Part shown: positions 1,698-42,567 of the stretch, piece by piece | Layout of the letters: every line of letters begins with the position of its first letter | Position numbering within the stretch: position 1 is the first letter of the stretch | The notes under the pieces: model-generated | Seen by the model: the letters and a program-made list of their open reading frames with translations, nothing else | What the model was told of the DNA's origin: nothing | Databases searched by the model: none | Translations under genes and position numbers: made by a program | Origin: Naegleria gruberi | Lineage: Eukaryota | Direction: 5' to 3' (one strand) | NCBI GenBank assembly: GCA_000004985.1 | Contig: GG738871.1 | Length of the DNA stretch: 64,000 bases

Positions 1698-1899
1698 TAA
1701 AGGTCAGACCCAACTTTTTGACTTTTATTCATCTTAATTAATTATCTCAATAAATACTCATTATAAATCAATATATTATATATCAATATACTCCAAATTG
1801 AATATATAATCATATAATAACATAATATTACATCATTATAATGACTTTTATAAGTTAATTTCATATAATAGATTAGACAATTATAATATCAATGATAAC

Positions 1900-4800
1900 N
1901 NNNNNNNNNNNNNNNNNNNNNNNNNNNNNNNNNNNNNNNNNNNNNNNNNNNNNNNNNNNNNNNNNNNNNNNNNNNNNNNNNNNNNNNNNNNNNNNNNNNN
2001 NNNNNNNNNNNNNNNNNNNNNNNNNNNNNNNNNNNNNNNNNNNNNNNNNNNNNNNNNNNNNNNNNNNNNNNNNNNNNNNNNNNNNNNNNNNNNNNNNNNN
2101 NNNNNNNNNNNNNNNNNNNNNNNNNNNNNNNNNNNNNNNNNNNNNNNNNNNNNNNNNNNNNNNNNNNNNNNNNNNNNNNNNNNNNNNNNNNNNNNNNNNN
2201 NNNNNNNNNNNNNNNNNNNNNNNNNNNNNNNNNNNNNNNNNNNNNNNNNNNNNNNNNNNNNNNNNNNNNNNNNNNNNNNNNNNNNNNNNNNNNNNNNNNN
2301 NNNNNNNNNNNNNNNNNNNNNNNNNNNNNNNNNNNNNNNNNNNNNNNNNNNNNNNNNNNNNNNNNNNNNNNNNNNNNNNNNNNNNNNNNNNNNNNNNNNN
2401 NNNNNNNNNNNNNNNNNNNNNNNNNNNNNNNNNNNNNNNNNNNNNNNNNNNNNNNNNNNNNNNNNNNNNNNNNNNNNNNNNNNNNNNNNNNNNNNNNNNN
2501 NNNNNNNNNNNNNNNNNNNNNNNNNNNNNNNNNNNNNNNNNNNNNNNNNNNNNNNNNNNNNNNNNNNNNNNNNNNNNNNNNNNNNNNNNNNNNNNNNNNN
2601 NNNNNNNNNNNNNNNNNNNNNNNNNNNNNNNNNNNNNNNNNNNNNNNNNNNNNNNNNNNNNNNNNNNNNNNNNNNNNNNNNNNNNNNNNNNNNNNNNNNN
2701 NNNNNNNNNNNNNNNNNNNNNNNNNNNNNNNNNNNNNNNNNNNNNNNNNNNNNNNNNNNNNNNNNNNNNNNNNNNNNNNNNNNNNNNNNNNNNNNNNNNN
2801 NNNNNNNNNNNNNNNNNNNNNNNNNNNNNNNNNNNNNNNNNNNNNNNNNNNNNNNNNNNNNNNNNNNNNNNNNNNNNNNNNNNNNNNNNNNNNNNNNNNN
2901 NNNNNNNNNNNNNNNNNNNNNNNNNNNNNNNNNNNNNNNNNNNNNNNNNNNNNNNNNNNNNNNNNNNNNNNNNNNNNNNNNNNNNNNNNNNNNNNNNNNN
3001 NNNNNNNNNNNNNNNNNNNNNNNNNNNNNNNNNNNNNNNNNNNNNNNNNNNNNNNNNNNNNNNNNNNNNNNNNNNNNNNNNNNNNNNNNNNNNNNNNNNN
3101 NNNNNNNNNNNNNNNNNNNNNNNNNNNNNNNNNNNNNNNNNNNNNNNNNNNNNNNNNNNNNNNNNNNNNNNNNNNNNNNNNNNNNNNNNNNNNNNNNNNN
3201 NNNNNNNNNNNNNNNNNNNNNNNNNNNNNNNNNNNNNNNNNNNNNNNNNNNNNNNNNNNNNNNNNNNNNNNNNNNNNNNNNNNNNNNNNNNNNNNNNNNN
3301 NNNNNNNNNNNNNNNNNNNNNNNNNNNNNNNNNNNNNNNNNNNNNNNNNNNNNNNNNNNNNNNNNNNNNNNNNNNNNNNNNNNNNNNNNNNNNNNNNNNN
3401 NNNNNNNNNNNNNNNNNNNNNNNNNNNNNNNNNNNNNNNNNNNNNNNNNNNNNNNNNNNNNNNNNNNNNNNNNNNNNNNNNNNNNNNNNNNNNNNNNNNN
3501 NNNNNNNNNNNNNNNNNNNNNNNNNNNNNNNNNNNNNNNNNNNNNNNNNNNNNNNNNNNNNNNNNNNNNNNNNNNNNNNNNNNNNNNNNNNNNNNNNNNN
3601 NNNNNNNNNNNNNNNNNNNNNNNNNNNNNNNNNNNNNNNNNNNNNNNNNNNNNNNNNNNNNNNNNNNNNNNNNNNNNNNNNNNNNNNNNNNNNNNNNNNN
3701 NNNNNNNNNNNNNNNNNNNNNNNNNNNNNNNNNNNNNNNNNNNNNNNNNNNNNNNNNNNNNNNNNNNNNNNNNNNNNNNNNNNNNNNNNNNNNNNNNNNN
3801 NNNNNNNNNNNNNNNNNNNNNNNNNNNNNNNNNNNNNNNNNNNNNNNNNNNNNNNNNNNNNNNNNNNNNNNNNNNNNNNNNNNNNNNNNNNNNNNNNNNN
3901 NNNNNNNNNNNNNNNNNNNNNNNNNNNNNNNNNNNNNNNNNNNNNNNNNNNNNNNNNNNNNNNNNNNNNNNNNNNNNNNNNNNNNNNNNNNNNNNNNNNN
4001 NNNNNNNNNNNNNNNNNNNNNNNNNNNNNNNNNNNNNNNNNNNNNNNNNNNNNNNNNNNNNNNNNNNNNNNNNNNNNNNNNNNNNNNNNNNNNNNNNNNN
4101 NNNNNNNNNNNNNNNNNNNNNNNNNNNNNNNNNNNNNNNNNNNNNNNNNNNNNNNNNNNNNNNNNNNNNNNNNNNNNNNNNNNNNNNNNNNNNNNNNNNN
4201 NNNNNNNNNNNNNNNNNNNNNNNNNNNNNNNNNNNNNNNNNNNNNNNNNNNNNNNNNNNNNNNNNNNNNNNNNNNNNNNNNNNNNNNNNNNNNNNNNNNN
4301 NNNNNNNNNNNNNNNNNNNNNNNNNNNNNNNNNNNNNNNNNNNNNNNNNNNNNNNNNNNNNNNNNNNNNNNNNNNNNNNNNNNNNNNNNNNNNNNNNNNN
4401 NNNNNNNNNNNNNNNNNNNNNNNNNNNNNNNNNNNNNNNNNNNNNNNNNNNNNNNNNNNNNNNNNNNNNNNNNNNNNNNNNNNNNNNNNNNNNNNNNNNN
4501 NNNNNNNNNNNNNNNNNNNNNNNNNNNNNNNNNNNNNNNNNNNNNNNNNNNNNNNNNNNNNNNNNNNNNNNNNNNNNNNNNNNNNNNNNNNNNNNNNNNN
4601 NNNNNNNNNNNNNNNNNNNNNNNNNNNNNNNNNNNNNNNNNNNNNNNNNNNNNNNNNNNNNNNNNNNNNNNNNNNNNNNNNNNNNNNNNNNNNNNNNNNN
4701 NNNNNNNNNNNNNNNNNNNNNNNNNNNNNNNNNNNNNNNNNNNNNNNNNNNNNNNNNNNNNNNNNNNNNNNNNNNNNNNNNNNNNNNNNNNNNNNNNNNN

Positions 4801-7086
4801 NNNNNNNNNNNNNNNNNNNNNNNNNNNNNNNNNNNNNNNNNNNNNNNNNNNNNNNNNNNNNNNNNNNNNNNNNNNNNNNNNNNNNNNNNNNNNNNNNNNN
4901 NNNNNNNNNNNNNNNNNNNNNNNNNNNNNNNNNNNNNNNNNNNNNNNNNNNNNNNNNNNNNNNNNNNNNNNNNNNNNNNNNNNNNNNNNNNNNNNNNNNN
5001 NNNNNNNNNNNNNNNNNNNNNNNNNNNNNNNNNNNNNNNNNNNNNNNNNNNNNNNNNNNNNNNNNNNNNNNNNNNNNNNNNNNNNNNNNNNNNNNNNNNN
5101 NNNNNNNNNNNNNNNNNNNNNNNNNNNNNNNNNNNNNNNNNNNNNNNNNNNNNNNNNNNNNNNNNNNNNNNNNNNNNNNNNNNNNNNNNNNNNNNNNNNN
5201 NNNNNNNNNNNNNNNNNNNNNNNNNNNNNNNNNNNNNNNNNNNNNNNNNNNNNNNNNNNNNNNNNNNNNNNNNNNNNNNNNNNNNNNNNNNNNNNNNNNN
5301 NNNNNNNNNNNNNNNNNNNNNNNNNNNNNNNNNNNNNNNNNNNNNNNNNNNNNNNNNNNNNNNNNNNNNNNNNNNNNNNNNNNNNNNNNNNNNNNNNNNN
5401 NNNNNNNNNNNNNNNNNNNNNNNNNNNNNNNNNNNNNNNNNNNNNNNNNNNNNNNNNNNNNNNNNNNNNNNNNNNNNNNNNNNNNNNNNNNNNNNNNNNN
5501 NNNNNNNNNNNNNNNNNNNNNNNNNNNNNNNNNNNNNNNNNNNNNNNNNNNNNNNNNNNNNNNNNNNNNNNNNNNNNNNNNNNNNNNNNNNNNNNNNNNN
5601 NNNNNNNNNNNNNNNNNNNNNNNNNNNNNNNNNNNNNNNNNNNNNNNNNNNNNNNNNNNNNNNNNNNNNNNNNNNNNNNNNNNNNNNNNNNNNNNNNNNN
5701 NNNNNNNNNNNNNNNNNNNNNNNNNNNNNNNNNNNNNNNNNNNNNNNNNNNNNNNNNNNNNNNNNNNNNNNNNNNNNNNNNNNNNNNNNNNNNNNNNNNN
5801 NNNNNNNNNNNNNNNNNNNNNNNNNNNNNNNNNNNNNNNNNNNNNNNNNNNNNNNNNNNNNNNNNNNNNNNNNNNNNNNNNNNNNNNNNNNNNNNNNNNN
5901 NNNNNNNNNNNNNNNNNNNNNNNNNNNNNNNNNNNNNNNNNNNNNNNNNNNNNNNNNNNNNNNNNNNNNNNNNNNNNNNNNNNNNNNNNNNNNNNNNNNN
6001 NNNNNNNNNNNNNNNNNNNNNNNNNNNNNNNNNNNNNNNNNNNNNNNNNNNNNNNNNNNNNNNNNNNNNNNNNNNNNNNNNNNNNNNNNNNNNNNNNNNN
6101 NNNNNNNNNNNNNNNNNNNNNNNNNNNNNNNNNNNNNNNNNNNNNNNNNNNNNNNNNNNNNNNNNNNNNNNNNNNNNNNNNNNNNNNNNNNNNNNNNNNN
6201 NNNNNNNNNNNNNNNNNNNNNNNNNNNNNNNNNNNNNNNNNNNNNNNNNNNNNNNNNNNNNNNNNNNNNNNNNNNNNNNNNNNNNNNNNNNNNNNNNNNN
6301 NNNNNNNNNNNNNNNNNNNNNNNNNNNNNNNNNNNNNNNNNNNNNNNNNNNNNNNNNNNNNNNNNNNNNNNNNNNNNNNNNNNNNNNNNNNNNNNNNNNN
6401 NNNNNNNNNNNNNNNNNNNNNNNNNNNNNNNNNNNNNNNNNNNNNNNNNNNNNNNNNNNNNNNNNNNNNNNNNNNNNNNNNNNNNNNNNNNNNNNNNNNN
6501 NNNNNNNNNNNNNNNNNNNNNNNNNNNNNNNNNNNNNNNNNNNNNNNNNNNNNNNNNNNNNNNNNNNNNNNNNNNNNNNNNNNNNNNNNNNNNNNNNNNN
6601 NNNNNNNNNNNNNNNNNNNNNNNNNNNNNNNNNNNNNNNNNNNNNNNNNNNNNNNNNNNNNNNNNNNNNNNNNNNNNNNNNNNNNNNNNNNNNNNNNNNN
6701 NNNNNNNNNNNNNNNNNNNNNNNNNNNNNNNNNNNNNNNNNNNNNNNNNNNNNNNNNNNNNNNNNNNNNNNNNNNNNNNNNNNNNNNNNNNNNNNNNNNN
6801 NNNNNNNNNNNNNNNNNNNNNNNNNNNNNNNNNNNNNNNNNNNNNNNNNNNNNNNNNNNNNNNNNNNNNNNNNNNNNNNNNNNNNNNNNNNNNNNNNNNN
6901 NNNNNNNNNNNNNNNNNNNNNNNNNNNNNNNNNNNNNNNNNNNNNNNNNNNNNNNNNNNNNNNNNNNNNNNNNNNNNNNNNNNNNNNNNNNNNNNNNNNN
7001 NNNNNNNNNNNNNNNNNNNNNNNNNNNNNNNNNNNNNNNNNNNNNNNNNNNNNNNNNNNNNNNNNNNNNNNNNNNNNNNNNNNNNN
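1900..7086. other. Large assembly gap (5187 N) lying inside the NHL-repeat gene
   Basis: Continuous n run. The ORF-track entries 1889..7540(-) and 1892..7102(+) are translations of N and are not real. Confidence 0.99.
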
Positions 7087-9753
7087 CAGTTGGGGAAGCT
7101 AGCAAAGCAAGGTTTGCAACATTATCATCTCCACTAAATCCAAATTTACCTGTTCCAGAAATTGTCTTAATACCTCCCTTAATATTATCAATCATTCTAA
7201 TCCTATTAGTTTCAGATTCCGAAATGACCATCTTGTTGTCTGTAGTTAACAGAATTTTTGTGGGATTTACATTAGCATAAAAGACATTCGATCCATCTGC
7301 AATACCTCCTACAAGTGGTTCCGTTCGACCATTTGATAAAACTAAATTTCCTGCTGTATAAACAAAATATGGCACTTCTGAGCATAAACCAATCGGAGAT
7401 AGTATTTTTTCATGGAAGGATGAAATTACACCTCCATTAATTATACGAATTTTGTTATTAGCAGTATCAGCAATATAAATAGATTGGTCAATGACATATA
7501 CCATACTTGGTAGGAAGAGTTTTGCCTGTGTTGCAACCATACCATCACCATTATATCCTTATTCTCATCAATATTCATTAATGTATTAGAAACTTACCTG
7601 ATTCACCTGTTCCAGCAATGATTTCAACCTTGAAATCATAATAAACACACAATATTCTGTGATTATAAGTATCTAATATAAATTAATGTATCCTAACTAG
7701 TAGGAAAGAGAAACTTACCTGCTACAAAGAGATTATGATTTGAAACAAACAATCCAAATGGTGAATTCAATTGAGTTTCTTTAGGATTATTGGGAACAAG
7801 GCTAGATCCAGTAATTCCATTTCCTAACACTGTACTAATAGTTCCATTGAAAAAAGATCTGACTCTATGATTGAAAGAATCTGAAATGTATAAAATTTCA
7901 GAATCATAGAATACATATTTTGGTAAGTTGAGATGAGTTTCTAATGGATTCAATCCGTCTCCATTAAATCCATTAGTACCACTTCCAACAATTGTGGTTA
8001 TTGTTCCATTAGGAAATATCATTCTAATTCTGTGGTTTCCACTGTCAGCAATGTAAATATTACCAGAATTCTTATCAAAATGAACTGAATGAGGTTTGTT
8101 TAATTGAGCATTAATTGCCAAACCTCCATCACCAGAAAATCCCTGAAATCCAATACCAGCAATAACCTCTACCATTTCGTTTGAGGTATATTTGAGAATT
8201 CTATGATTATCAGTATCCGCAATATAAATCGTAGAAAATGAATCGAGACAGAATATTCCTGTTGGATTTTTCAAAATTATTGAGGACGGAGGACCTTTCT
8301 TTCTTAATCTATCACCAGTAATGGAACCAGCATATAAACAACCGTTTCCTTTAGATACATCTATTTTTTGAATCATTTTAGTTGATGAAACGTATAAATC
8401 AGAATTTCTGAGTTGTAATGCATTGGGAATGAATTTTGAACGGATAAAACTCTCATTAGTCTCTTCAGAAGAATTCCAACATGAAACATTTGAAAATTTG
8501 TCTATTAATGGAATGGTAGACACAGTTCCAGTTGTCAAATCCACTTTCTTTAAATTAAATCCAAAATTAGAATCAGCAATTAATAGTTCATTACTTGATT
8601 GATTGAACGCAATAGCAGCTATTGAATCAAACACTCTATTTTGCACATTAGTACCATCAATAATAGCTCCATTAATATTTAAAATTGGATAAACTTGTTT
8701 AAGGGACAAATCAGCTTTCATTATAGCTTGTGCATGAAAAATATGATTTGGTGAGAAAAAAGTTGGTGATACAATAGATGAATCGAACAACAAAATGGTC
8801 GAAATATTCCCAGTAGTTTGATTAATCACTTTCCAATATCCTAAATTTGAAAGATAAATTGAATCGTCAATAGGAGAAACTGCAAATCCATACACAAAAT
8901 TAAGTTTAGCATCCAAAGCAGGTCCATCATTGGTATTTCCATCAAATTTTCTCCCTTGAATGACAGTCATCCACCATGTTTGTAAATTAATCTTGAATAT
9001 TGAGAATAAATCACATCCATACAAGTATCCCTTGTGATATCTTATATTCGAAATATAAGTTGAAAACATTGTTTCGTTTGAAAAGCCATCTTTCTTGGTT
9101 AGTGTAAATCCATCTCGCAAACTCATAAACTTAATAATTCCGTTTAAATCAACTCTATATAGGTTTGATTCATCACAAATATACAAGTTTCCAATAGGAT
9201 CCCTAGAAATTGAACCAATTTTGGTAAAAATGGTATTCGAAAGTGCTGAACCTTCCTGAATGGTAGTGGAAGTTCCTAACTGCTTGGAAAGAAGAATTAA
9301 ATTTCCATTTTGAAATTTGTAGATCTGCTTGTTGGTAGCAATATAAATAGTGTCGTATGAAGTTTCGTCCACATGAAAACTAGTAATGGTGAGATAAACG
9401 GTAGTTGCACTATTGATATCACCAGTAGAAACCGAATTCTCGGTCATACAACCAGAATAACAACCAACCAATAATTTTCGATCACCAGAAGTTTGATTAA
9501 ATTTAAAAATACGAAAAGAAGATTCCTGAAAATAAATAATTTCTGGCTGATTTTCGGATTGGTATGCATTGGCAAAAGCTGTTGAAAATTTGCCTACACC
9601 ACTGATAGGTTCCCATCTATACGCAACCAGTTTCGAATAACCAAGCTGAACAAACAAGAATAAACTCAGCAAAATGAGCAGACGCATTTTTCTTTTGATT
9701 CCAATACACATATGATTGATGACTTTAGTGCACCATTTAAAGTTTCTGATCAT
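7087..9753 (-). CDS. Secreted NHL-repeat protein, 5' part of a gene whose 3' part is lost in the N gap. Exons (minus strand): 9753 (or Met at 9687)..7719, 7672..7598, 7557..<=7087. Introns are 46 nt (7718..7673) and 40 nt (7597..7558)
   Basis: 686-aa ORF with a signal-peptide-like MRLLILLSLFLFVQLGYS after an internal Met. Repeated NHL consensus, e.g. YIADTDNHRILKY, VIAGIGFQGFSGDGGLA, YIADSGNHRIRMI. Exon joins are chosen so the NHL repeat reads through: ...NLFVAG|DTYNHRIL... and ...IIAGTGESG|YNGDGMVATQAKL.... Donors are CAG|GTAAGT and acceptors ATTAG| and ATAAG|. Confidence 0.75.
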
Positions 9754-10563
9754 TACATTTGAAAATTAATCTAACAATAAATTTACATTGATTGTAATGT
9801 TGTGGAGGCTTGAAAAATGAAAAGGTTTGTAGATGGAGAAAATTCACATCATCAACACATGAACTACACAGTTGTCGGTGGTAAATATAATGGTAGAGAA
9901 TAATATAATAAACATATTATGAATTGTTGTTTTATTATATTGTTTGAAACTTACGGTGCATAGCGTGAAATATCGGAACTTGGTAAATTGACAACATGAC
10001 GAAAATCTGATAATAAATATGATGTTTATTATCTATTTAAATAGTAGTACTAAAAGACATGATTCAAGTTGGTGAAGTACATGCTTAGTTATGATCCATG
10101 TTATTTTTGTTTTTCAAAATTCACATGTACCTATCCCTATCATAACTTGACCAAAATTGATTAGAGAAAGTTCTCCTACCTACTATTGACCATTCCGAAC
10201 AATACTACATTGACAGTTTTCCAACTTGTCCAGTAGATCCGGCAGTAATGATGAATTTAGTGAAAACATTTCATCAAAATTACATTACTAAAAATTAATT
10301 TCCACAAATACTATTATTATATTGATGGAAAACAATAATGACGATGGTTGGTGAATGATCCGATGATGGAACACCAAATTGTGAATTTCCATCATGAAAA
10401 ATAAATTCCAATTTCATGATGATAATTCACCAATAAAAATTACTATTATTACTATTATATAGATCATGTTGAGATGATGATGTGAAAGTTTGGTGGTTTC
10501 ATGATGTAAACCACTCCGAAATCATCATATCCTCCTGAGTAGAAGAATGTTTTTTTTATGAAA

Positions 10564-10613
10564 NNNNNNNNNNNNNNNNNNNNNNNNNNNNNNNNNNNNN
10601 NNNNNNNNNNNNN
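10564..10613. other. Assembly gap (50 N)
   Basis: Run of 50 n in the intergenic region. Confidence 0.99.
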
Positions 10614-10701
10614 CAATCACTTCCGAATATTTCCTGGTACTCTAATATTTCATCAAATAATTTGCAAAACTTAATGTTATTGAGAATTTTTTGCTCCCTC
10701 A

Positions 10702-13700
10702 CTAAACAGTCATTAATTCAACTTCTTTTTTGGTGGCTATTTCAGGCTGTTTCTTTCTTCTCAAACACTTAACAATAATAATTACTAAAATACTAATGAT
10801 GACACAACAGCAACAACATATACCTAATCCAAGTAACCCAAATAGCCCATACAACTCAGAATTGGATTGGTTGCTATTTGGTATTGATATTGGCAATGTA
10901 ATTGTTGATGTGGAAAGAGTTTTTTCCACCACCACTAATGATGTAACATCTTTTGAGCAATTACAATGTATTAATGAATTGGAAACAATTAGAGAGCAAT
11001 TTAGATTACCTTCACTGAATAGATTATCTATTGGAATACATTCAAGAGTTGAAATGATATTTGTTTTTTGTTGTTTAACTGTTTCACCTGAGCTCTCAAA
11101 ATAGTTATTCACATTAATATTTGAAAAGTTGTAATCATTACGAATGTTGAAGGTAAATGAAATATCAGCAGCATACACCTTATCCAGAAATACAATCTTA
11201 GTGAGTAATCTATAGCTCTGTTTCAATTCAAGTTGTTCAAACTCTGAAACTTGGATATTCTGTGTAGTTGAAATTTGATTCAGATAATCAAAGACACCCA
11301 TATAATCTTCCACTGAGAAAAATGATGTCTCTAGAACAGATCTACTTGGAACATTAGGATCAATTCTATTGAATACAAGAGTGCTATTTCCATCAGAGGA
11401 AGTTATTGTCTTTTTCATTTGATTCTTGTAACTCAAGAGAGAAAATATTGAAAAATGTGAAAGATGTACATGGTAATCCTTTTGACCGACATTATAATTT
11501 CTCAACAAGACATTAGTGAATTTCTTCATTGAATTCAAAACTCCATATCTATAATTTTGTCTGAGTTCACTACAGTTTGTTAATAATCTTATAATATTAT
11601 CAAACAAGCTGTTGCACAATGTTTCAACACCATAAGCTACTCTGAATTTAGTATTCTGATTGGCCAAGTTAATGATTCTCTCTGTCAAATTGAAAAATTT
11701 ATCAAATGGAAGTGATTCAATAGAGTGGCAATTTGAAATTAATGATTCCAATCCAAAAACGTAAACGCTGAAATGAATATCCGAAATTAACTCCAAAGGA
11801 CTTTTCTGATCTAATCCAATAGCCATGCTATTGATCATTTCTTCTCTCAATCCATATGCAACGTCCATGTTCAAGTTTCTTGCTTGGCTCAACTGGGCAA
11901 TCATTAGTTCTGAAGTTCTTGAAATTGTAGCAGAATTGAAAACTAATTTAGCACTGTCACTTGGTAGGTATGATGCAGCATAGGATTGCCATGACTTTAC
12001 TTTGCTTTTAACATTTGATAGAGATGCTGCTGCAGGAGTTAAGATTTCAACAGTTTTGATAAACTCAACAGATGCTCCTGTATCCAAATCAACAATGTCA
12101 ACAAATGTATCCATTTGTTTTGAAAAAAATGGAGAAGGAAGGTATGAAGAAAACTTTTCTCCTAAATTGTAAAGTGGAATTTTTGTTCCTGACTTGTCGT
12201 CAATGAATCCAAAAACAAAATCAATTGATTTTTCTGTATTTTGACACCCAGGACAAGAAAATGAGAATTGAGTCTCTAATGCATATCCATATGATGGATT
12301 AATATAGCAGAGACATGATTTTGGAGATTTGACAAGTTTGAATTTGTAAGAAAATATTGATGATAGATTATTTCTTCTATCTGTTACTTTGAATAATATT
12401 TCATTTTCTGTATCCTCTATGAAGGTGGAAAGTGAAAGGATTAATGATGAGGATTTTGATGGATTAACTGACATTTTGGAAATCATCGAGTCAGTCAATG
12501 TAGCACCATTGATTGTCCATTCTCTGATCATATCATCTTCAGTTGTGTATTTTTCATCTCCTCCCAAAATAACGGATAATTGTAAACTCAAGACTTCACC
12601 TTTGATAACTTTCACTCTGTTTGGTTTGACAGAAATTAAACTAATCACAGGTGGAATCAATAATTCCGTACTTGGAAAATCAATATCTACTGATTTTGAT
12701 ATGTAACGTATTCCTTTTTGGATTGACAATGTTAAAGTAACTTTTGAAAGTGACGATTTTTGAATAGTACATTTTGGAGACTTCAAGTTTGAACATTGGT
12801 TTAAAATATTTGAAATTAATGAATCCTGACATGAATTTTTTGAGATTCTGTCAAAGCAAGACCAAGTCCATGAATCAGAAGTTGATACATCATTATCTGG
12901 ATCTGAATATTCAACATTAGTTTCAGCTTGATTTGTATTCAAATTGGAAAGATAAATATTGACTGATAAATCTCTTGATTTGCTGGATATTGGAATAAGT
13001 AATGTTGCATTTGAATTTGAATTAAATTTTGATATTGCTTTAACACCAAATAAAAAGGATTCATCTTGGCTATTTGAAATTCCAGTTATAACTAAATCAT
13101 TGTTAACATCTATCTGATAATCAATGGTAGAACCTGATGCTTGGTACCAAATATATTCAAATTCCTTGTTTTCAAAATAGCAAGCAGGTAATTCAATAGA
13201 TTTCTTTACAACTATTGGAAGAGAACTTTTCTCAATATTGATTAATGACATTTTACTTGTCAGCATTGAAAGTGTTGGATGTGGAACAAATGATTTAGAA
13301 ATTTCAATAAATTGCTTTTCACTCTTTGAACCACTGAGAGAACTTTCTACAATTAATCCCAATACATACATTCCTGAAATGGAAATGTTGTTTGAATTCA
13401 AAGTGGAATTGAAATTACTTAAAGATATTTTTTCTAGACTGAAATTCGGATCTGGGGACGATTCAATTGACCAAATAAATTTGACTGGTTTCAAATCTCC
13501 ACAATATGATCCTGATGCATCAATTAATATTTCTTCACATGGACTGATACTTTTCTTATATGCAACACTAATGATTGGTTTCACTGGATTATTGGAAGGA
13601 AGTATAGTAACGGATAACGGGCAATTAATGTTAGAAAGTTCATTGTTATCAAGTGCATTTACATTCAAAGTAATATTTAGGAAGGGCAATAAAGAATGTT

Positions 13701-16700
13701 GACCACCAAGTTCAATATAGAAATTACCATCTTTCCAAAAGCATGATGGGTTATTTCCAAATAAAGTTAAACTATCATCTAATAGCAGCTTACTACACTC
13801 TACAAAGCTATTATTGCAGCCAAGTTGCCAGTTATTCATATGAAATTCTAAAGTATTTCCAAAAGAATTAAAAGTTGGTTGTGGACTTTGGGCAAAACAC
13901 CTTGTTCCAATAAAACCAACATTACATTGACAATTATTTTCATCAACACAGAAACCGTTTCCTGAACAAGTTAATGGATCTGCTTGTAATTTTCCAAAAC
14001 AAGAAGTCTTTGTAAAACTTGTCAACAATTCACATTGCAAACCATGATGAAGTGAATTACATTGACATGTGTTGTTTGAGGTACAATTACCATTACCACT
14101 ACAAACTCTTGAATCATTCATTTCATATCCAAAACATTTGGTAACTAAAACAGTGTTTGAAGAGGTTGTTGTTGTATTGGAGGTTGCATTATTTAAGGAA
14201 ACATTGGTATCATTGATTGTTCCAACATTGGTTGAATTTAAGAAACCTGTCGAAGAATTATTAATGGTATTTGTATAATTGTTATTTACAAACATTAAAG
14301 AAGTGTTACTATTAGCTGTAGTATTTGATAATACTGAGTTATTACTCAAGACGGAAGAATTTGAAACTGGTACTGTACTGCAGTTGGTGCATGTAGAATT
14401 ATCTAGTGCCATTGATGAATTAGTCAAATTATTTGTTGAATTGTTACTGGAAGTATTATTCATTAGTGAGCTATTATTAATGAAACCTTCAGTAATATTT
14501 CCAAAATTGGTGGTATTATCAAAAGCTGGAGATGAGTTATTAATGGCAGTATTTGTGTAATTGTTATTAAGGGTTGAGTTATCAATGGAAGTGTCATTAC
14601 TCAATACTTTTGTTGTATTTGAGGTTAAGCTATTATTTGTTGCATTTTTCATGTTTTCAACAGTGGCAGTTTCATTGCAAAACAGTCCAGTTGATCCTTC
14701 ATTACAATTACACACAGCTCTAACGAAACAACTTCCATTTCCACTACAAACCAATGAAGAGTTTGACAGAATACCGAAACATGAAGTCACACTGCAAGTA
14801 TTATCATTGTAACCCTCTTTACATTCACAAATATCAAAGTCGACGCATTTTCCATTTCCGTTGCATACATTAGACTCATCACTCAAGATTCCAAAGCAAT
14901 ATATTTTGGAACAATCATCACCATAATAATTATCAAAGCATTCACAACCATTAAAACTTGTGCAATCGCCATTTCCAAAACAAGCTGAATCATTATTGTA
15001 AAATACACCAAAGCAAGTGAAGTTTTGTAAACAATATCCATATTTGTCTCTTTCACAATCAACAATATAACTATAGAGTCCATAACCAGCTGTATCATCA
15101 ATGAAAACAACATCTCCATCTTGGTTGAAACTGGAGCTAGCTATCTTGAATGTTAAATTGGTTGGATTGACAAAATATGCATCAATCTTTGGATCATACC
15201 AAAACTTTGAACTTTTAGTCTCTCCATAATAAGTTCCATCCTTTAAGAATTCTGAAAAAGAGTTAATATAATCAGCATTTCTAAAATATTTTGGACCAGT
15301 TATGGTTCCATTTCCAAGCACATCCACTACAACTCCTTCATCACGAATTACTCTTCTAATAGGATAATCACAACCACCAGTGTCTCTTATGAAATATATA
15401 TCTCCATTTTCAGCAATAGTCCATCCATATTTACTGAGGGGGGACCTATCACTTGGTGTTCTCAAACCTTGACCTGCAATTTGAACAATCTTGGTACCAT
15501 TTACTACTTTATAAACACCTTGATTACAAGTATCACCTATCATGAAAATTGTTCCATTTTGATCTATTGTCCAGCTTATTGGACTATACGGTAAGCCGTA
15601 AGCAACAGGTGTAATTTCAGTATCTATAATTTTCAACTTGGCAATATAATAGTCTTTAGTATGGAGAGAGGATGAGCAGGTCACATAAATTTCATCATTG
15701 AAACAGAGAATATTTGTAACTGTACAATAATCAACTTTTCCATCAACGGTACGATTTAAGGTTCTTGTTGACAACGTTTGGCTGGTAAGATTAAAGAATG
15801 ATAAATAGGAAGAAGAAATTTCTGAGAACACAAGTGTGTCATCACTTAATAAACAGAGACGTTTCGGTACTGTTCTAGAAAAAGATGCTATTGTTGTGTG
15901 TGTATCATTTGTTGGATCATAGCCAACAACAGATTTTGCCAAGTAGTAAATATTACCATTAGACTTTCTAATAACAAAGCTATTCACTGAATCACCAATA
16001 AAAAAAACTGTTCTCAAAGTAGTCGAATTAATTCGTTCGAAAATATATGAAGAATAACCTGTTTGATATGCAAAGTAGAAATTTTGTGATACTGGATGAA
16101 ATATCATTGTACTGAATAAAGCTGCTGATGTAGGCATAAGATCTCCCTCAGAGGGACGAGGCATTTCGTACAAATTGTTATATCCTCGCCCAACCAAGGG
16201 CATTACCCTATTTTGATTGTCTATATATGAAATAATATTGCTTGTTCTCAGATATAAAGTACCAGTTATTGGATGTGACATAATTCCTAATAACGAGTCA
16301 AATTTAACATCTTTAGCATCTGAATATAATCCAGAAAGACTTATTCCTTCCTGATATCCAACACCAAATACTTTTTTGATGGTGAGATTGGACAGATCCA
16401 GTAGAAATATTCTATGTTGATCAGCTCCATAGCTGAAAAATAAACAACCATTCAAATATTGCATATTCAAGAACTCGGTAATTGAAATATCTAATGAGGA
16501 TTGTCCATCATATTGATATCCAGTTGATGAAGAGCTGTTTCCTGCTATTAATTGTAATAATTTTGAATAAATGTTGAACTTGTATATGAAGTTAGTCACC
16601 TTAGTGTTATTTTTAAACTCAGTGGCAATGAATAAATCCTCTCTTGTTGATTTATCTACTATGCATTGGTAAATATCGTTATTCAAAGTAATCAATGGTT

Positions 16701-17928
16701 TCAATAAACCACTTTTATGCTTCAGTCTGTACACTGTTCGCTTATCCTGTCCAATAATAATAAAATCCCCATTTCTATATGTTTTAATAGGTTTGAAAGT
16801 TGGACTGAATTGAAATCCATGAATGTAGGTTGATAAGGATAAATCCTCCTTGACAAATCCTGCAACATTTTTAGTATTCGAATATTGGTCCACCGTAATT
16901 ATATTAGTTGGTAATGACATGTAATATTTAAGGTTATTATTATATGGAATTATTGAAATTCCTGTGAAAGTATTGGGTCCCAGAGTTTGCAAAGTCTGAT
17001 TACTTCGTTTCAAGTCAATGGTCTCCTTTCCAAATCCAAATACCAGTTCGATATTACCTTCTCTATTTATTTTTCTCACAACAGAATTTGAGTTGTCTGA
17101 AAAATAAATCTCACCATCAATCATTGTGATCAATTTTGGGGAAATAACGCAAGCTTCAAAAGCTAGTCCACTATAGGAGGAATTGAATGAACAGGATGAC
17201 CAACTACCTTTTTCTGCAGCAACTCTAAATAAGGTTCCATTTTGAATTTTCATAATAGAGTTATAAATTGTAAAATAAACTATTCCATTTCGAACAAGAT
17301 AAGATGATGGTGGTCTTAAGGCAGTTGATAAAGCGTTTGAACCATCAGCTGGCATTGCTGTAGTTGTGAATTGATTACCTGCAATTGCAGTTGAACTTTG
17401 TGCTGTTGTATTCACAAATTTAATTCTGTTAAGGCTGTATACAACCAAATTTCCGTATTCATCATCACCGAATATTGTAATTGAACTAGATCCTCCAAAT
17501 GTAACTAATGTGGAAACTGTGTTGTTTTCATGATTAATTACTTTCACTTTACCACTGTATTTCTCTATATAAATACATTGTCCGTTTGAATTTCTTTTTA
17601 GTGAAAGAACCTCTGAAAGAAATTGTTTATCATCAACATCAAGGGTTTTCAGTAAATAAACACTAACAGTTTTCGTAGAAGCATAGTATCTTTTCAAAAA
17701 CTTGCCTTCCCGAAAAATAATATCCTCATTATCTAATACGCACAAGTCTGCAGGTGCAACATTTGCTAAACTGAATACAATATTGGATCCTAATGCTCTA
17801 TCAACAGGTTTAACAATAGATAATTTTGATACATAATTCGGAATTGCATCTACTTGAAAGAATTTGCTTAATAAACTGCTAAGGAGGAAACAAGCAATTA
17901 CCCCAAACAAACAAGAAGAAACTCTCAT
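10702..17928 (-). CDS. Giant (2408 aa) single-exon type I membrane protein. Order: signal peptide, about 950 aa of NHL/beta-propeller repeats, tenascin-type EGF-like Cys repeats flanking an Asn/Ser/Thr-rich heavily sequon-loaded stalk, a roughly 1000-aa uncharacterised ectodomain, one TM helix, and a short basic cytoplasmic tail
   Basis: Uninterrupted 7.2-kb ORF with a verified ATG at 17928..17926. Hydrophobic N-terminus MRVSSCLFGVIACFLLSSLLS. NHL-like repeats (IAGNQFTTTAMPADGSNALSTALRPPS...VYFTIYNSIMKI). EGF-like CxxxxCxGNGxCxxxxxCxCxxGYxGxxC units (CFGNGDCTSFNGCECFDNYYGDDC, CNGNGKCVDFDICECKEGYNDNTC, CSGNGSCFVRAVCNCNEGSTGLFC, CSGNGNCTSNNTCQCNSLHHGLQC). C-terminal LGLGICCCCCVIISILVIIIVKCLRRKKQ. 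Confidence 0.85.
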   Translation of the reverse strand: MRVSSCLFGVIACFLLSSLLSKFFQVDAIPNYVSKLSIVKPVDRALGSNIVFSLANVAPADLCVLDNEDIIFREGKFLKRYYASTKTVSVYLLKTLDVDDKQFLSEVLSLKRNSNGQCIYIEKYSGKVKVINHENNTVSTLVTFGGSSSITIFGDDEYGNLVVYSLNRIKFVNTTAQSSTAIAGNQFTTTAMPADGSNALSTALRPPSSYLVRNGIVYFTIYNSIMKIQNGTLFRVAAEKGSWSSCSFNSSYSGLAFEACVISPKLITMIDGEIYFSDNSNSVVRKINREGNIELVFGFGKETIDLKRSNQTLQTLGPNTFTGISIIPYNNNLKYYMSLPTNIITVDQYSNTKNVAGFVKEDLSLSTYIHGFQFSPTFKPIKTYRNGDFIIIGQDKRTVYRLKHKSGLLKPLITLNNDIYQCIVDKSTREDLFIATEFKNNTKVTNFIYKFNIYSKLLQLIAGNSSSSTGYQYDGQSSLDISITEFLNMQYLNGCLFFSYGADQHRIFLLDLSNLTIKKVFGVGYQEGISLSGLYSDAKDVKFDSLLGIMSHPITGTLYLRTSNIISYIDNQNRVMPLVGRGYNNLYEMPRPSEGDLMPTSAALFSTMIFHPVSQNFYFAYQTGYSSYIFERINSTTLRTVFFIGDSVNSFVIRKSNGNIYYLAKSVVGYDPTNDTHTTIASFSRTVPKRLCLLSDDTLVFSEISSSYLSFFNLTSQTLSTRTLNRTVDGKVDYCTVTNILCFNDEIYVTCSSSLHTKDYYIAKLKIIDTEITPVAYGLPYSPISWTIDQNGTIFMIGDTCNQGVYKVVNGTKIVQIAGQGLRTPSDRSPLSKYGWTIAENGDIYFIRDTGGCDYPIRRVIRDEGVVVDVLGNGTITGPKYFRNADYINSFSEFLKDGTYYGETKSSKFWYDPKIDAYFVNPTNLTFKIASSSFNQDGDVVFIDDTAGYGLYSYIVDCERDKYGYCLQNFTCFGVFYNNDSACFGNGDCTSFNGCECFDNYYGDDCSKIYCFGILSDESNVCNGNGKCVDFDICECKEGYNDNTCSVTSCFGILSNSSLVCSGNGSCFVRAVCNCNEGSTGLFCNETATVENMKNATNNSLTSNTTKVLSNDTSIDNSTLNNNYTNTAINNSSPAFDNTTNFGNITEGFINNSSLMNNTSSNNSTNNLTNSSMALDNSTCTNCSTVPVSNSSVLSNNSVLSNTTANSNTSLMFVNNNYTNTINNSSTGFLNSTNVGTINDTNVSLNNATSNTTTTSSNTVLVTKCFGYEMNDSRVCSGNGNCTSNNTCQCNSLHHGLQCELLTSFTKTSCFGKLQADPLTCSGNGFCVDENNCQCNVGFIGTRCFAQSPQPTFNSFGNTLEFHMNNWQLGCNNSFVECSKLLLDDSLTLFGNNPSCFWKDGNFYIELGGQHSLLPFLNITLNVNALDNNELSNINCPLSVTILPSNNPVKPIISVAYKKSISPCEEILIDASGSYCGDLKPVKFIWSIESSPDPNFSLEKISLSNFNSTLNSNNISISGMYVLGLIVESSLSGSKSEKQFIEISKSFVPHPTLSMLTSKMSLINIEKSSLPIVVKKSIELPACYFENKEFEYIWYQASGSTIDYQIDVNNDLVITGISNSQDESFLFGVKAISKFNSNSNATLLIPISSKSRDLSVNIYLSNLNTNQAETNVEYSDPDNDVSTSDSWTWSCFDRISKNSCQDSLISNILNQCSNLKSPKCTIQKSSLSKVTLTLSIQKGIRYISKSVDIDFPSTELLIPPVISLISVKPNRVKVIKGEVLSLQLSVILGGDEKYTTEDDMIREWTINGATLTDSMISKMSVNPSKSSSLILSLSTFIEDTENEILFKVTDRRNNLSSIFSYKFKLVKSPKSCLCYINPSYGYALETQFSFSCPGCQNTEKSIDFVFGFIDDKSGTKIPLYNLGEKFSSYLPSPFFSKQMDTFVDIVDLDTGASVEFIKTVEILTPAAASLSNVKSKVKSWQSYAASYLPSDSAKLVFNSATISRTSELMIAQLSQARNLNMDVAYGLREEMINSMAIGLDQKSPLELISDIHFSVYVFGLESLISNCHSIESLPFDKFFNLTERIINLANQNTKFRVAYGVETLCNSLFDNIIRLLTNCSELRQNYRYGVLNSMKKFTNVLLRNYNVGQKDYHVHLSHFSIFSLLSYKNQMKKTITSSDGNSTLVFNRIDPNVPSRSVLETSFFSVEDYMGVFDYLNQISTTQNIQVSEFEQLELKQSYRLLTKIVFLDKVYAADISFTFNIRNDYNFSNINVNNYFESSGETVKQQKTNIISTLECIPIDNLFSEGNLNCSLIVSNSLIHCNCSKDVTSLVVVEKTLSTSTITLPISIPNSNQSNSELYGLFGLLGLGICCCCCVIISILVIIIVKCLRRKKQPEIATKKEVELMTV

Positions 17929-23241: not shown

Positions 23242-24180
<939 letters not shown>

Positions 24181-36435: not shown

Positions 36436-37605
36436 ATGGCATTCGAAGATTTAACCACAATCGTTTTGGATGTTGGTTCATTTCGTGTTAGAGCAGGAAT
36501 TGCAGGAGATGATGAGCCAAAAATTAATATTCCAACTCTTGCATCTCGGAATCCAAAATTTAAATCTACAAAATCTACAAATTTGGAATCCAAATTGACG
36601 AATAATGAACAAGATGATGCTGATACTTATTTGAAAAGGGAATATTTAATTGGATCGGAAATAATTGATTATGAAATAATGAATAATGATGGGAAATTAG
36701 AAATCACAAGTCCATTTGGTGATGGAAAGGAAATTAATGTTGATGTAATGGAAAGGATTTGGAGATTTACATTTGAACAATTAAAAGTTGAGCCAGAGGA
36801 GTGTCCATTAGTGATGATTGAACATGCATTGACTGAAAAGAGAGTTAGAGAGACAAAGATGCAAATCATGTTTGAGTCATTTGGGATTCCAATGTATTAT
36901 TCTGGATATGATTCAGTGATGAGTATGTATGCGAGTGGTAGAGTGACAGGAATTACAGTGAATATGGGATATGAGGAAACTCAAATTGTTCCAGTTTTTG
37001 AAGGATTTGCATTACCTCATGCAATAATGACAATGAATTTTGGAGGACGACAATTGACTGAATACTTAGCTCAAAAATTGAAATTGGATGGGCATAATTT
37101 AACTAATGATCAAGTGAGTCAATTGAAAGAGAAATTGTGTCGTGTAGCTGAGGATTATGATGAAGAATTGAGAACAATAGACAGTGCATCTTTTGAACTA
37201 CCTGATGGAAATGTTATTCAAATTAAGAATGAACGATTGACATGTCCAGAAATTTACTTTAACCCACAAATTTTTCAATCCCAAGAAATTGGTCCAATAC
37301 ACCTTCAAACCTATTCTTCAATTCAGAAGTGTGACATTGATGGAAGAAGATTTTGGTACTCGAACATTCTCCTCACAGGAGCTAGCTCATGTTTCCCTAA
37401 AATGACAGAGAGATTAACCAAGGAAATGGTCTTCTTGTCACCTTCCTCAATGAAAGTCAAGGTGATTGGTGCACCAGAGAGAAATATTCAGGCATGGTTG
37501 GGAGGCTCTATATTGGGATCCATTTCCGCCTCTCAAACGATGTTCATCACACGAGAGGAGTATGAAGAAGTTGGTCCAGTTCTTGTTCATAGGAGGTGTT
37601 TCTAA
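36436..37605 (+). CDS. Actin-related protein (Arp family, divergent; 389 aa)
   Basis: ATG at 36436. Actin-fold hallmarks: N-terminal IVLDVGSFRVRAGIAGDDEPK (compare actin [21 protein letters not shown]), and C-terminal ...ITREEYEEVGPVLVHRRCF (compare actin SKQEYDESGPSIVHRKCF). Confidence 0.8.
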   Translation: MAFEDLTTIVLDVGSFRVRAGIAGDDEPKINIPTLASRNPKFKSTKSTNLESKLTNNEQDDADTYLKREYLIGSEIIDYEIMNNDGKLEITSPFGDGKEINVDVMERIWRFTFEQLKVEPEECPLVMIEHALTEKRVRETKMQIMFESFGIPMYYSGYDSVMSMYASGRVTGITVNMGYEETQIVPVFEGFALPHAIMTMNFGGRQLTEYLAQKLKLDGHNLTNDQVSQLKEKLCRVAEDYDEELRTIDSASFELPDGNVIQIKNERLTCPEIYFNPQIFQSQEIGPIHLQTYSSIQKCDIDGRRFWYSNILLTGASSCFPKMTERLTKEMVFLSPSSMKVKVIGAPERNIQAWLGGSILGSISASQTMFITREEYEEVGPVLVHRRCF

Positions 37606-41226: not shown

Positions 41227-42567
41227 ATGGAAAGAAGAGGCAACAATAAAAAGTTGACAACCAACAACATTAAACCTTCATTCAAAAAAAACATGTCGAA
41301 GTCGCTTGTTGTTGTTGTTTCGTTCACAGCTGTTGTGTTACTCCTTGCATGCAGTGTATCTGTGATTACATGTTTGTATCCATCCCAAGTTGTTGATATC
41401 GAGAATTGGTATCTGACCCTTCCAATTGGTGATGTTAAAGACCCTACCGACATTTATCAACCAACATTAGCAACCTATTCCATTGATCCATACTTTGTTG
41501 TTGGACCAAATAATAATTCTATTCGTTTTCGTTCAGTCATTTTCAATGAAAGTGTTACAACTGTTGGTTCAAAATATCCAAGATCAGAACTTAGAGAAAT
41601 GGACCCAATCAATCCAGCCAAAGTCAAGATTTCATGGAATAACACAGTTGGTGTCCATACCATGATTATTGACCAAGCCATCACTCACTTGCCAATCACA
41701 AGAGACAGAGTCATAGCAGGTCAAATCCACGATGATAATGAATTCATCTTTACCATCACATTATCTGGCACAACTCTTTACATTAATGCTGCCAATAAGG
41801 CAACTGCTAAGGTCATTACCAAAACCTATCAATTAGGTACAATCTTTAGACTCAAAATTGAAGCACTCAATGGTACTACCAATTTCTACTATAATGACAT
41901 GTCCACTCCAATTTATACTCATCCATTGGTATTTAAGAATTCATACTTTAAGGCAGGTTGTTATGCTCAATCAAATTGTACTGTGGAAGGATCATTGTGT
42001 GGAGATTCAAATAATTATGCAGAAGTGTTGATTTACAATTTGACTACTACTCATGATTATTCATCATCACCATCGTACGTAAATAATTCATCATCCTCAT
42101 CTAATGGAACAATAATTAATAATAATAATGGAACAATTAATTCCAATTCAACCAATAATAATGGTACAATAATTAATAATAATAATGGAACCACTCCGAA
42201 TAATAACAACAATGGTACTATCAATAATAACAATGGAACAATCAATTCAAATTCTACAAATAATTCAACCAATAATAACAATGGAACAATAATTAATAAT
42301 GGTACAACTCCCGATAGTAATAACAATAGCACTAATAATAATAATGGTACAATTATTGATAATGGAGGCTCATCCAATAATAATTCAACAAATACTCCAA
42401 AGGCTTCAACTTCTAATCGGGTTGTTGTGAATATGGCTACTAGTTCTTTCATTCCTCATCATTCATTTGCTAATATTCTGCTCCGATTCATCCTAATGCC
42501 AATACTAGTTTCCTACATTGTCTATTCGCTGGCTTTCCATGATAGTAGCATCTTTCCCACCAATTAA
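41227..42567 (+). CDS. PL7-family (alginate-lyase-2-like) polysaccharide lyase domain protein (446 aa). It has an N-terminal signal/anchor, an Asn/Thr-rich repetitive stalk, and a C-terminal hydrophobic segment (possible GPI signal or TM)
   Basis: ATG at 41227. All three PL7 signatures are present in the right order: RSELRE (R-x-E-L-R), IAGQIHDDN (QIH) and YFKAGCYAQS (YFKAGxYxQ). Hydrophobic N-terminus LVVVVSFTAVVLLLACSV. Stalk of N(n)GTI(N/I) repeats. C-terminal FANILLRFILMPILVSYIVYSLAF. Confidence 0.75.
   Translation: MERRGNNKKLTTNNIKPSFKKNMSKSLVVVVSFTAVVLLLACSVSVITCLYPSQVVDIENWYLTLPIGDVKDPTDIYQPTLATYSIDPYFVVGPNNNSIRFRSVIFNESVTTVGSKYPRSELREMDPINPAKVKISWNNTVGVHTMIIDQAITHLPITRDRVIAGQIHDDNEFIFTITLSGTTLYINAANKATAKVITKTYQLGTIFRLKIEALNGTTNFYYNDMSTPIYTHPLVFKNSYFKAGCYAQSNCTVEGSLCGDSNNYAEVLIYNLTTTHDYSSSPSYVNNSSSSSNGTIINNNNGTINSNSTNNNGTIINNNNGTTPNNNNNGTINNNNGTINSNSTNNSTNNNNGTIINNGTTPDSNNNSTNNNNGTIIDNGGSSNNNSTNTPKASTSNRVVVNMATSSFIPHHSFANILLRFILMPILVSYIVYSLAFHDSSIFPTN
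42090..42400 (+). repeat. Coding minisatellite: imperfect tandem 18-30-nt units (aataataataatggaacaat...) encoding the Asn-rich NnGTI(N) stalk of the PL7-like protein
   Basis: Seen directly. The antisense ORF 42057..42452(-) is a by-product of the repeat. Confidence 0.7.

Follow-up and report, generated by a model that had tools for sequence, protein, structure and literature searches.

The sea-urchin protein SpREJ1 is a carbohydrate receptor with one transmembrane (TM) helix and EGF, REJ and GPS domains, and both SpREJ1 and SpREJ2 are also without a PLAT domain and an 11-TM body (PMC1934368). Published cases of GAIN domains include Dictyostelium and Tetrahymena; the paper in which the domain was defined (PMC3321182) says nothing of Naegleria, and our literature searches found no paper that connects Naegleria with GAIN, REJ, polycystin, NHL-repeat or teneurin. 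Here, we analyzed a stretch of 64,000 nucleotides of Naegleria gruberi DNA (GenBank assembly GCA_000004985.1, contig GG738871.1; hereafter the window) that begins with a telomere array, and we focused on the first two genes in from that end, which we call the outer and the inner gene. We conclude that both genes probably encode type I single-pass surface glycoproteins of a family expanded in Naegleria and Heterolobosea, in which a variable head is mounted on the REJ-GAIN base of polycystin-1/REJ-type receptors.

The inner gene encodes a large type I single-pass protein

The inner gene (positions 10702-17928, minus strand; NAEGRDRAFT_68123) is an uninterrupted, intronless open reading frame (ORF) of 2,408 aa plus a stop codon. 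A first-pass annotation, made from the letters of the window without database searches, had described this ORF, and its product proved to be exactly identical to N. gruberi EFC43847.1/XP_002676591.1, which is named "predicted protein" and recorded on a 417,575-bp scaffold. The order of parts that the annotation had proposed (head, EGF repeats, glycan-rich stalk, ectodomain, one TM helix and short tail) was also borne out. Hydropathy marks a signal peptide at aa 1-27 (17848-17928; all parts of the inner gene lie on the minus strand), and an all-beta N-terminal head follows at aa 28-966 (15031-17847), where profiles and a blade hidden Markov model (HMM) point to degenerate propeller blades of the NHL type. 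Pfam and a map of the cysteines then place EGF repeats 1-3, of the teneurin/tenascin type, at aa 967-1086 (14671-15030) and EGF repeats 4-5 at aa 1263-1346 (13891-14142). These five six-Cys units, which span aa 972-1084 and 1265-1344 and for which Pfam returned EGF_2, EGF_TEN and EGF_Teneurin, correspond to the EGF-like repeats of the annotation. Between the two groups lies an N/S/T-rich stalk (aa 1087-1262, 14143-14670) with dense N-glycosylation sequons, and the stalk deserves the name glycan-rich that it had been given: of 70 N-x-S/T sequons in the whole protein, 33 fall within aa 1100-1300. Closer to the membrane are a beta-rich, PKD-like Ig domain (~aa 1460-1530) and a REJ module, which together occupy 12034-13890, and a GAIN-like domain at aa 1966-2340 (10909-12033). 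A single TM helix predicted by hydropathy (aa 2360-2387, 10768-10851) and a cytoplasmic tail of 21 aa that ends VELMTV-COOH (10702-10767, stop codon included) complete the chain. The topology of the inner protein is type I, single-pass.

The predicted TM helix contains a run of five cysteines, CCCCC (aa 2371-2375, 10804-10818), and there are three Cys in the paralogue P0002 (handles of this form denote related proteins). These residues could be sites of palmitoylation or of helix packing. The short tails also have features in common. Those of the inner protein and of P0002, P0004, P0007, P0008, P0013, P0015, P0023 and P0025 share [VI]-E-L, and many tails in the family terminate with [VI]EL.TV, STV or xSV at the carboxy end. 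These endings resemble class I PDZ ligands, or export or sorting signals with a valine at the C-terminus, and could act as such.

A REJ module and a GAIN-like domain precede the TM helix

The annotation had left the long ectodomain uncharacterised, a description that can be replaced by a PKD-like Ig domain, a REJ module and a GAIN domain. The Pfam REJ family (PF02010) matches aa 1675-1974 of the inner protein with E=1.1e-15 (57.7 bits against a cutoff of 25), and paralogues score between 1e-16 and 1e-27 with the same model. P0005 and P0010 each have a PKD-type Ig match (K319L-like) in the part that corresponds to inner aa ~1460-1530. The PKD-REJ region is the best-conserved part of the inner protein.

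The annotation had named both REJ and GAIN/GPS as domains to search for, and both searches were positive, the second by way of a family profile and hhalign. A single-sequence Pfam search found no GPS in the inner protein and nothing useful in its C-terminal 459 aa, and a three-sequence profile of the C-terminal region had no match among PDB sequences; a 14-member profile was needed to reach GAIN structures. That profile was built from an alignment of the 400 residues before the TM helix in 14 family members. In this alignment a stretch of helices is followed by beta structure; four cysteines are the same in every member (C-x~13-C-x~10-C-x-C), and a hydrophobic strand leads on to the TM helix. 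When the profile was compared with all PDB sequences, its best non-EGF matches were GAIN domains, namely those of ADGRL3 (6vhh, E=0.0032 over 248 residues; 0.013 for another ADGRL3 entry), ADGRD1 (0.014) and CELSR1, and each of the alignments finishes in register at C-x-C-x-H-L-T-x-F. Eight remoter relatives of the REJ module have the canonical CxCxHLT, and in three of the eight (three were checked) Pfam GPS matched with E-values of 1.9e-13 to 9.3e-8, exactly where the Naegleria profile aligns. A profile of these eight relatives matched solved GAIN domains with up to E=5.6e-16. Finally, hhalign aligned the Naegleria profile with the canonical-GPS profile over 270 columns that include both subdomains (91% probability, E=1.1e-6). 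On the basis of the PDB profile matches, the co-location with GPS and the hhalign result, we interpret aa 1966-2340 as a GAIN domain that consists of a helical subdomain A (~1970-2150), a beta subdomain B and a degenerate GPS motif, C-x13-C-x10-C-x-C-SKDVTSLVVVEK (aa 2297-2337, 10918-11040).

The catalytic His of the HL|T(S/C) autoproteolysis motif is absent from all 14 aligned members, which mostly have Lys in its place. The inner protein has K-D-V-T at this position, within the wider stretch CNCSKDVTSLVVV; CNCSKDVTSLVVVEK. A likely P1' Thr/Ser is retained in P0001, P0002 and P0004, and the motif reads K-L-T in P0009 and Q-L-T in P0011; other relatives have Gly instead of Thr/Ser at P1' (K-L-G). 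Because the catalytic His is lacking throughout the family, the GAIN domain is probably uncleaved and structural. Most family members have, in addition, an EGF-like insert (C-x-G...C-x-C..G....C) between the first helices of GAIN subdomain A. We observed it in P0004, P0007-P0011, P0013, P0015, P0020 and P0023; the inner gene, P0002, P0018 and P0024 are without it.

The order REJ, GAIN/GPS and TM matches that of the PKD1 family, and SpREJ1, with its one TM helix, EGF, REJ and GPS, triggers a response that depends on ion channels (PMC1934368). Both points would fit a sensory subunit of a polycystin-type complex, in which an external cue is passed to a TRPP/PKD2-like cation channel during chemotaxis, mechanosensing or the switch from amoeba to flagellate. 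However, comparison of the inner protein with PKD1 revealed no PLAT or PKD_channel match in Pfam, a single hydrophobic helix, no 11-TM body and no C-terminal coiled coil, the tail is a mere 21 aa, and the 64-kb window holds no PKD2-like gene. We consider such a channel subunit unlikely. If instead, as we favor, the protein is a surface glycoprotein with a variable head on a REJ-GAIN base, any signal must use partner proteins via the helix or the short tail, because there is no 7TM or 11TM body.

Profiles point to degenerate NHL-type blades in the head

The first-pass annotation had assigned NHL repeats to the products of both genes. For the outer protein the assignment holds in Pfam (E=1.1e-21), whereas the repeats of the inner protein are degenerate, invisible to Pfam and seen with family profiles. 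A Pfam search with inner aa 28-985 returned no NHL match, even at E<=10 and with head segments submitted separately. A profile of the inner and P0002 heads matched the NHL propeller of NHLRC2 (6g7w) at two places with E=7.9e-5, and in BLASTP inner aa ~155-300 matched the NHL regions of P0013 (5e-9) and P0006 (6e-5). Similar results were obtained with a blade HMM trained on 67 blades of NHL type, which came from the outer gene and from members of the family. The inner head scored 37.3 bits with this model, while 300 shuffles gave no more than 8.2, with clear blades at aa 194-233 and 250-298 and fainter ones at aa 468-522 and 782-850. The heads of the paralogues scored 55 bits (P0002) and 91 bits (P0004) and had extra blades at homologous positions. 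We therefore describe the inner head as a probable array of NHL-type blades, about 16-18 in number and for the most part degenerate.

The proteins could in principle be membrane-anchored or shed enzymes, in which six-bladed propellers of the NHL/SGL type would be catalytic (as a lactonase, lyase or amidating lyase) and the rest of the chain a stalk. P0006 matches Vgb_lyase, SGL and Arylesterase, and the outer protein has a weak SGL match (E=0.036). These matches reflect the common propeller fold, however, and are far weaker than those to NHL/TEN_NHL. Moreover, the inner head is too degenerate for any enzyme family in Pfam, and conservation in the family sits in the REJ-GAIN module, not in the head. 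An enzymatic role is, in our estimate, highly improbable, and we return to the propeller as the head of a surface glycoprotein.

The outer gene probably belongs to the same family

The outer gene (7087-9687, minus strand) is represented by its 5' part, 838 aa before an assembly gap of 5,187 N at 1900-7086 that we take to hold the 3' part. Its three exons (9687-7719, 7672-7598 and 7557-7087) are separated by two short GTAAGT..AG introns at 7673-7718 and 7558-7597, the likeliest ATG is at 9687, and the product begins MRLLILLSLFLFVQLGYS. The spliced frame is open as far as the gap edge at 7087, in keeping with the annotation, which had the gene running into the 5-kb gap. Two very long "ORFs" across the gap, 1889-7540 (1,883 aa) and 1892-7102 (1,736 aa), were dismissed as artefacts in which the N run had been translated as X. 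We also considered whether the gene ends beyond the gap, on its telomere side, and rejected this: neither 1386-1899 nor 403-1073 contains an open frame. Because no open frame lies distal to the gap, the 3' end is placed inside it.

Both products carry signal peptides, as the annotation had noted. In the outer protein the signal peptide is followed by ~450 aa of degenerate NHL blades and then by canonical ones. With the blade HMM the first 470 aa scored 59 bits, and aa 455-838 contain at least six canonical blades; Pfam also matched TEN_NHL (E=1.6e-16). BLASTP aligned its canonical NHL region with the NHL heads of the REJ-family proteins P0006, P0013, P0008 and P0010 at 30-40% identity (E~1e-37). 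These similarities suggest that the outer gene is probably another member of the REJ-GAIN family whose EGF-REJ-GAIN-TM part lies within the gap. Its membership is read from the NHL head, because the 3' part of the gene lies in the gap. An EGF-REJ-GAIN-TM part would require ~2.5-4.5 kb, and the gap is sized at 5.2 kb.

The annotation had presented the two genes as a tandem pair, in the setting of large paralogous genes at chromosome ends; close paralogues of each other they are not. The best BLASTP match between the outer and inner proteins has E=0.002 over 42 aa, and by this comparison they appear to be distant relatives from different subfamilies, with no recent duplication between them.

The family is expanded in Naegleria, with head and stalk less conserved than the base

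Ordinary homologue searches with the inner protein, whose queries are rich in low-complexity sequence, were insensitive: the full-length query retrieved itself and one paralogue, the C-terminal query one Willaertia fragment, and the N-terminal query not even itself. The family was delineated by an exhaustive HMMER search with a profile of inner aa 1349-2357, the same region of P0002 and the Willaertia fragment. At E<1e-3 this search returned 98 relatives, of which 23 passed E<1e-30, and the strong ones were almost all from Naegleria. N. gruberi has at least 18 family proteins on ~15 scaffolds that range from 35 kb to 1 Mb in size, and the family is also present in N. fowleri (under the UniRef name "PKD/REJ-like domain-containing protein"), N. 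lovaniensis and Willaertia magna. In P0006, P0008 and P0010, Pfam detects NHL, teneurin-type EGF and REJ in the same order as in the inner protein.

Within the inner gene's own subfamily (P0001, P0002 and P0004), the parts of the chain differ in their conservation. Identity between the inner protein and P0002 or P0004 is 44% or 32% in the head and 43% or 23% in the stalk; the corresponding values are 73% or 57% in the REJ module and 66% or 52% in the helical part of the GAIN domain. The REJ-GAIN module has changed more slowly than the head and the stalk. Judged from these alignments, the pattern would be compatible with a variable ligand-binding end on a conserved base.

Two pairs of family members have adjacent accessions and share scaffolds: EFC38199/EFC38200 (P0010/P0008) and EFC41042/EFC41041 (P0101/P0102). 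The second pair forms one cluster at 90% identity and may stem from a recent tandem duplication or from a gene whose model was split in two. Because adjacent accessions share scaffolds, tandem duplication seems to be recurrent in the family.

The chromosome end and its surroundings

The window opens with a terminal array of 67 CCCAAA units at 1-402 (TTTGGG on the opposite strand), and TTTGGG has been published as the candidate telomere repeat of N. gruberi (PMC3622300). The outer and inner genes are, as annotated, the first two genes in from the telomere and share a strand, the minus strand. A second CCCAAA array, of 43 units in the same orientation, lies at 1124-1385, internal to a 50-N gap; this gap and 671 bp of unique AT-rich DNA separate the two arrays, whose unique flanks are unrelated to one another. 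The second array is either a join of two telomere-bearing contigs in the scaffold or a nested, healed telomere, and the exact structure of the end is uncertain because this array sits behind the 50-N gap within the first 1.1 kb. We also noted CCAAAA variant units at ~43-57 and a short degenerate repeat tract at 1674-1700.

The remaining 46 kb of the window contain ordinary genes, which encode RGS, LRR, polyubiquitin, TPR, RCC1, actin-family, alginate-lyase-like, metallopeptidase, BTB, homeobox, S9 peptidase and LMBR1-like proteins. A four-unit polyubiquitin gene at 23242-24159 (minus strand) and an actin-family gene at 36436-37605 (plus strand) lie less than 40 kb from the telomere, indicating that this subtelomere is neither gene-poor nor reserved for surface genes. 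We found no further family members, fragments, pseudogenes or cassettes in the rest of the 64-kb window. Genes for an Alginate_lyase2 protein (41227-42567, plus strand, E=1.5e-30) and a putative "Metallopep" peptidase (43236-44894, minus strand, E=1.5e-59) stand side by side, and this amoebal alginate lyase may have been acquired by gene transfer from bacteria.

The setting invites comparison with subtelomeric contingency or variant-surface families, in which ectopic recombination and silencing at chromosome ends diversify and switch genes for adhesion or recognition. The two are the genes nearest to the telomere repeats, N. gruberi has an expanded set of family members, the adjacent-accession pairs provide further examples of neighboring members, and head and stalk change faster than the REJ-GAIN module. 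By contrast, this end has just two members and these are distant relatives, their neighbors over ~45 kb are ordinary genes free of family fragments or pseudogenes, the members are scattered over the ~15 scaffolds mentioned above, and N. gruberi is free-living, without immune pressure from a host. Furthermore, the closest paralogue of the inner protein is 52% identical, and so there is no sign of recent exchange. A location next to the telomere is by itself insufficient to establish a contingency family, and the window gives this explanation little support; we rate it as quite unlikely. We retain the interpretation that the two genes are probably members of an expanded family of surface glycoproteins.

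Discussion

In the model that we favor, the propeller head would be the end of the molecule that binds ligands on the substrate, on prey or on other cells. The EGF repeats and the glycan stalk would act as spacers that keep the head off the membrane, and REJ and GAIN, as in polycystin-1 and sea-urchin REJ1, would form a base next to the membrane that is both rigid and extensible. The GAIN domain would stay uncleaved and act structurally.

Several observations weigh against this model. About half of the inner head (aa 540-966) gives faint blade signals only. AlphaFold2, run on both halves of the inner protein with alignments of 2-3 sequences, produced an all-beta but unreliable model of the head (mean pLDDT 38) and a C-terminal model of mean pLDDT 41 with about seven helices and then strands, the order expected for GAIN. 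Since both models are poor, the six-bladed fold, the number of propellers and the GAIN fold are provisional in three dimensions; Foldseek searches with these low-confidence models, a weak consistency check only, retrieved multi-propeller proteins of a generic kind and arrays of Ig or cadherin domains, with TM scores of ~0.1. The P1' Thr/Ser kept in the inner subfamily leaves room for cleavage, which on the residues present seems unlikely. With its REJ-GAIN-TM part unseen, the outer protein could be a secreted or otherwise anchored NHL protein. Lastly, surface location, ligand binding and the lack of cleavage are all predictions from sequence.

With these reservations, a "predicted protein" of 2,408 aa can now be read as a receptor, and behind it stands a sizeable, undescribed Naegleria family with the architecture NHL-EGF-PKD-REJ-GAIN-1TM. 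Its proteins are candidates for the recognition of substrate, prey or other cells in Naegleria, and a member is present in the pathogen N. fowleri. Evidence for GAIN at the level of sequence now reaches Heterolobosea, and natural GAIN domains that lack the catalytic His offer a way to study the domain apart from a GPCR or a channel. The Naegleria proteins could represent a free-standing, single-pass REJ-GAIN module in Discoba. Taken together with animals, Dictyostelium and Tetrahymena, they would then date GAIN to near the last eukaryotic common ancestor and make the module a base of adhesion proteins that preceded fusion to 7TM or 11TM bodies. We advance this scenario tentatively and regard it as possible but doubtful. 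If true, the Lys that the whole family has where a catalytic His is expected would point either to an ancestral GAIN that did not cleave or to cleavage by another chemistry.

Comparison with known systems

The resemblance to teneurins is confined to common domains. A teneurin is a type II protein whose N-terminal domain is intracellular and is followed by eight EGF repeats, NHL, a YD-repeat shell and a toxin-like C-terminus. Pfam models of teneurin-type EGF and NHL match the family, TEN_NHL on the outer protein among them, and in both groups NHL is distal and EGF nearer the membrane. The annotation had pointed out that the chain runs in the opposite direction to that of teneurins. This is correct, the Naegleria topology being type I and not type II, and a teneurin identity is ruled out. 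No other teneurin feature was found: Pfam gave no Ten_N, YD/Rhs or Tox-GHH match in the inner protein, which has no teneurin intracellular domain, FN-plug or toxin-like C-terminus.

NHLRC2 is the best sequence match to the inner head among solved structures and has the same blade motif, "..P..i..d..g.iYvaD..n..Irki". It is, however, a cytosolic thioredoxin-NHL protein with one six-bladed propeller, whereas the inner head would be extracellular, with an estimated 16-18 largely degenerate blades.

Adhesion GPCRs (latrophilin/ADGRL, ADGRG and CELSR) share with the inner protein a juxtamembrane GAIN domain, the four GPS cysteines, the terminal beta-strand and a long, modular adhesive ectodomain. 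Their HL/T is replaced by K-D-V-T in the inner protein and by K-L-T and K-L-G in relatives. We exclude an identity as adhesion GPCR: there is a single TM helix and no secretin-like 7TM domain, so a tethered agonist would have no target.

The inner protein is related to the PKD1/REJ family and is a member of the REJ/GAIN superfamily. The HL/T triad of PKD1 and REJ proteins is likewise not found in it, and the GPS His is absent across the aligned Naegleria family. The heads also differ, with C-type lectin, LRR or WSC domains in the SpREJ/PKD1 proteins and NHL-type propellers in Naegleria. In their overall plan, SpREJ1 and PKD1 are like the inner protein: each has a glycosylated ectodomain of large size and type I orientation, in which a head that binds ligands (presumably so in Naegleria), EGF and REJ are followed by a GPS domain just before the first TM helix, and in PC1, as in the inner protein, a PKD-type Ig domain lies upstream of REJ.

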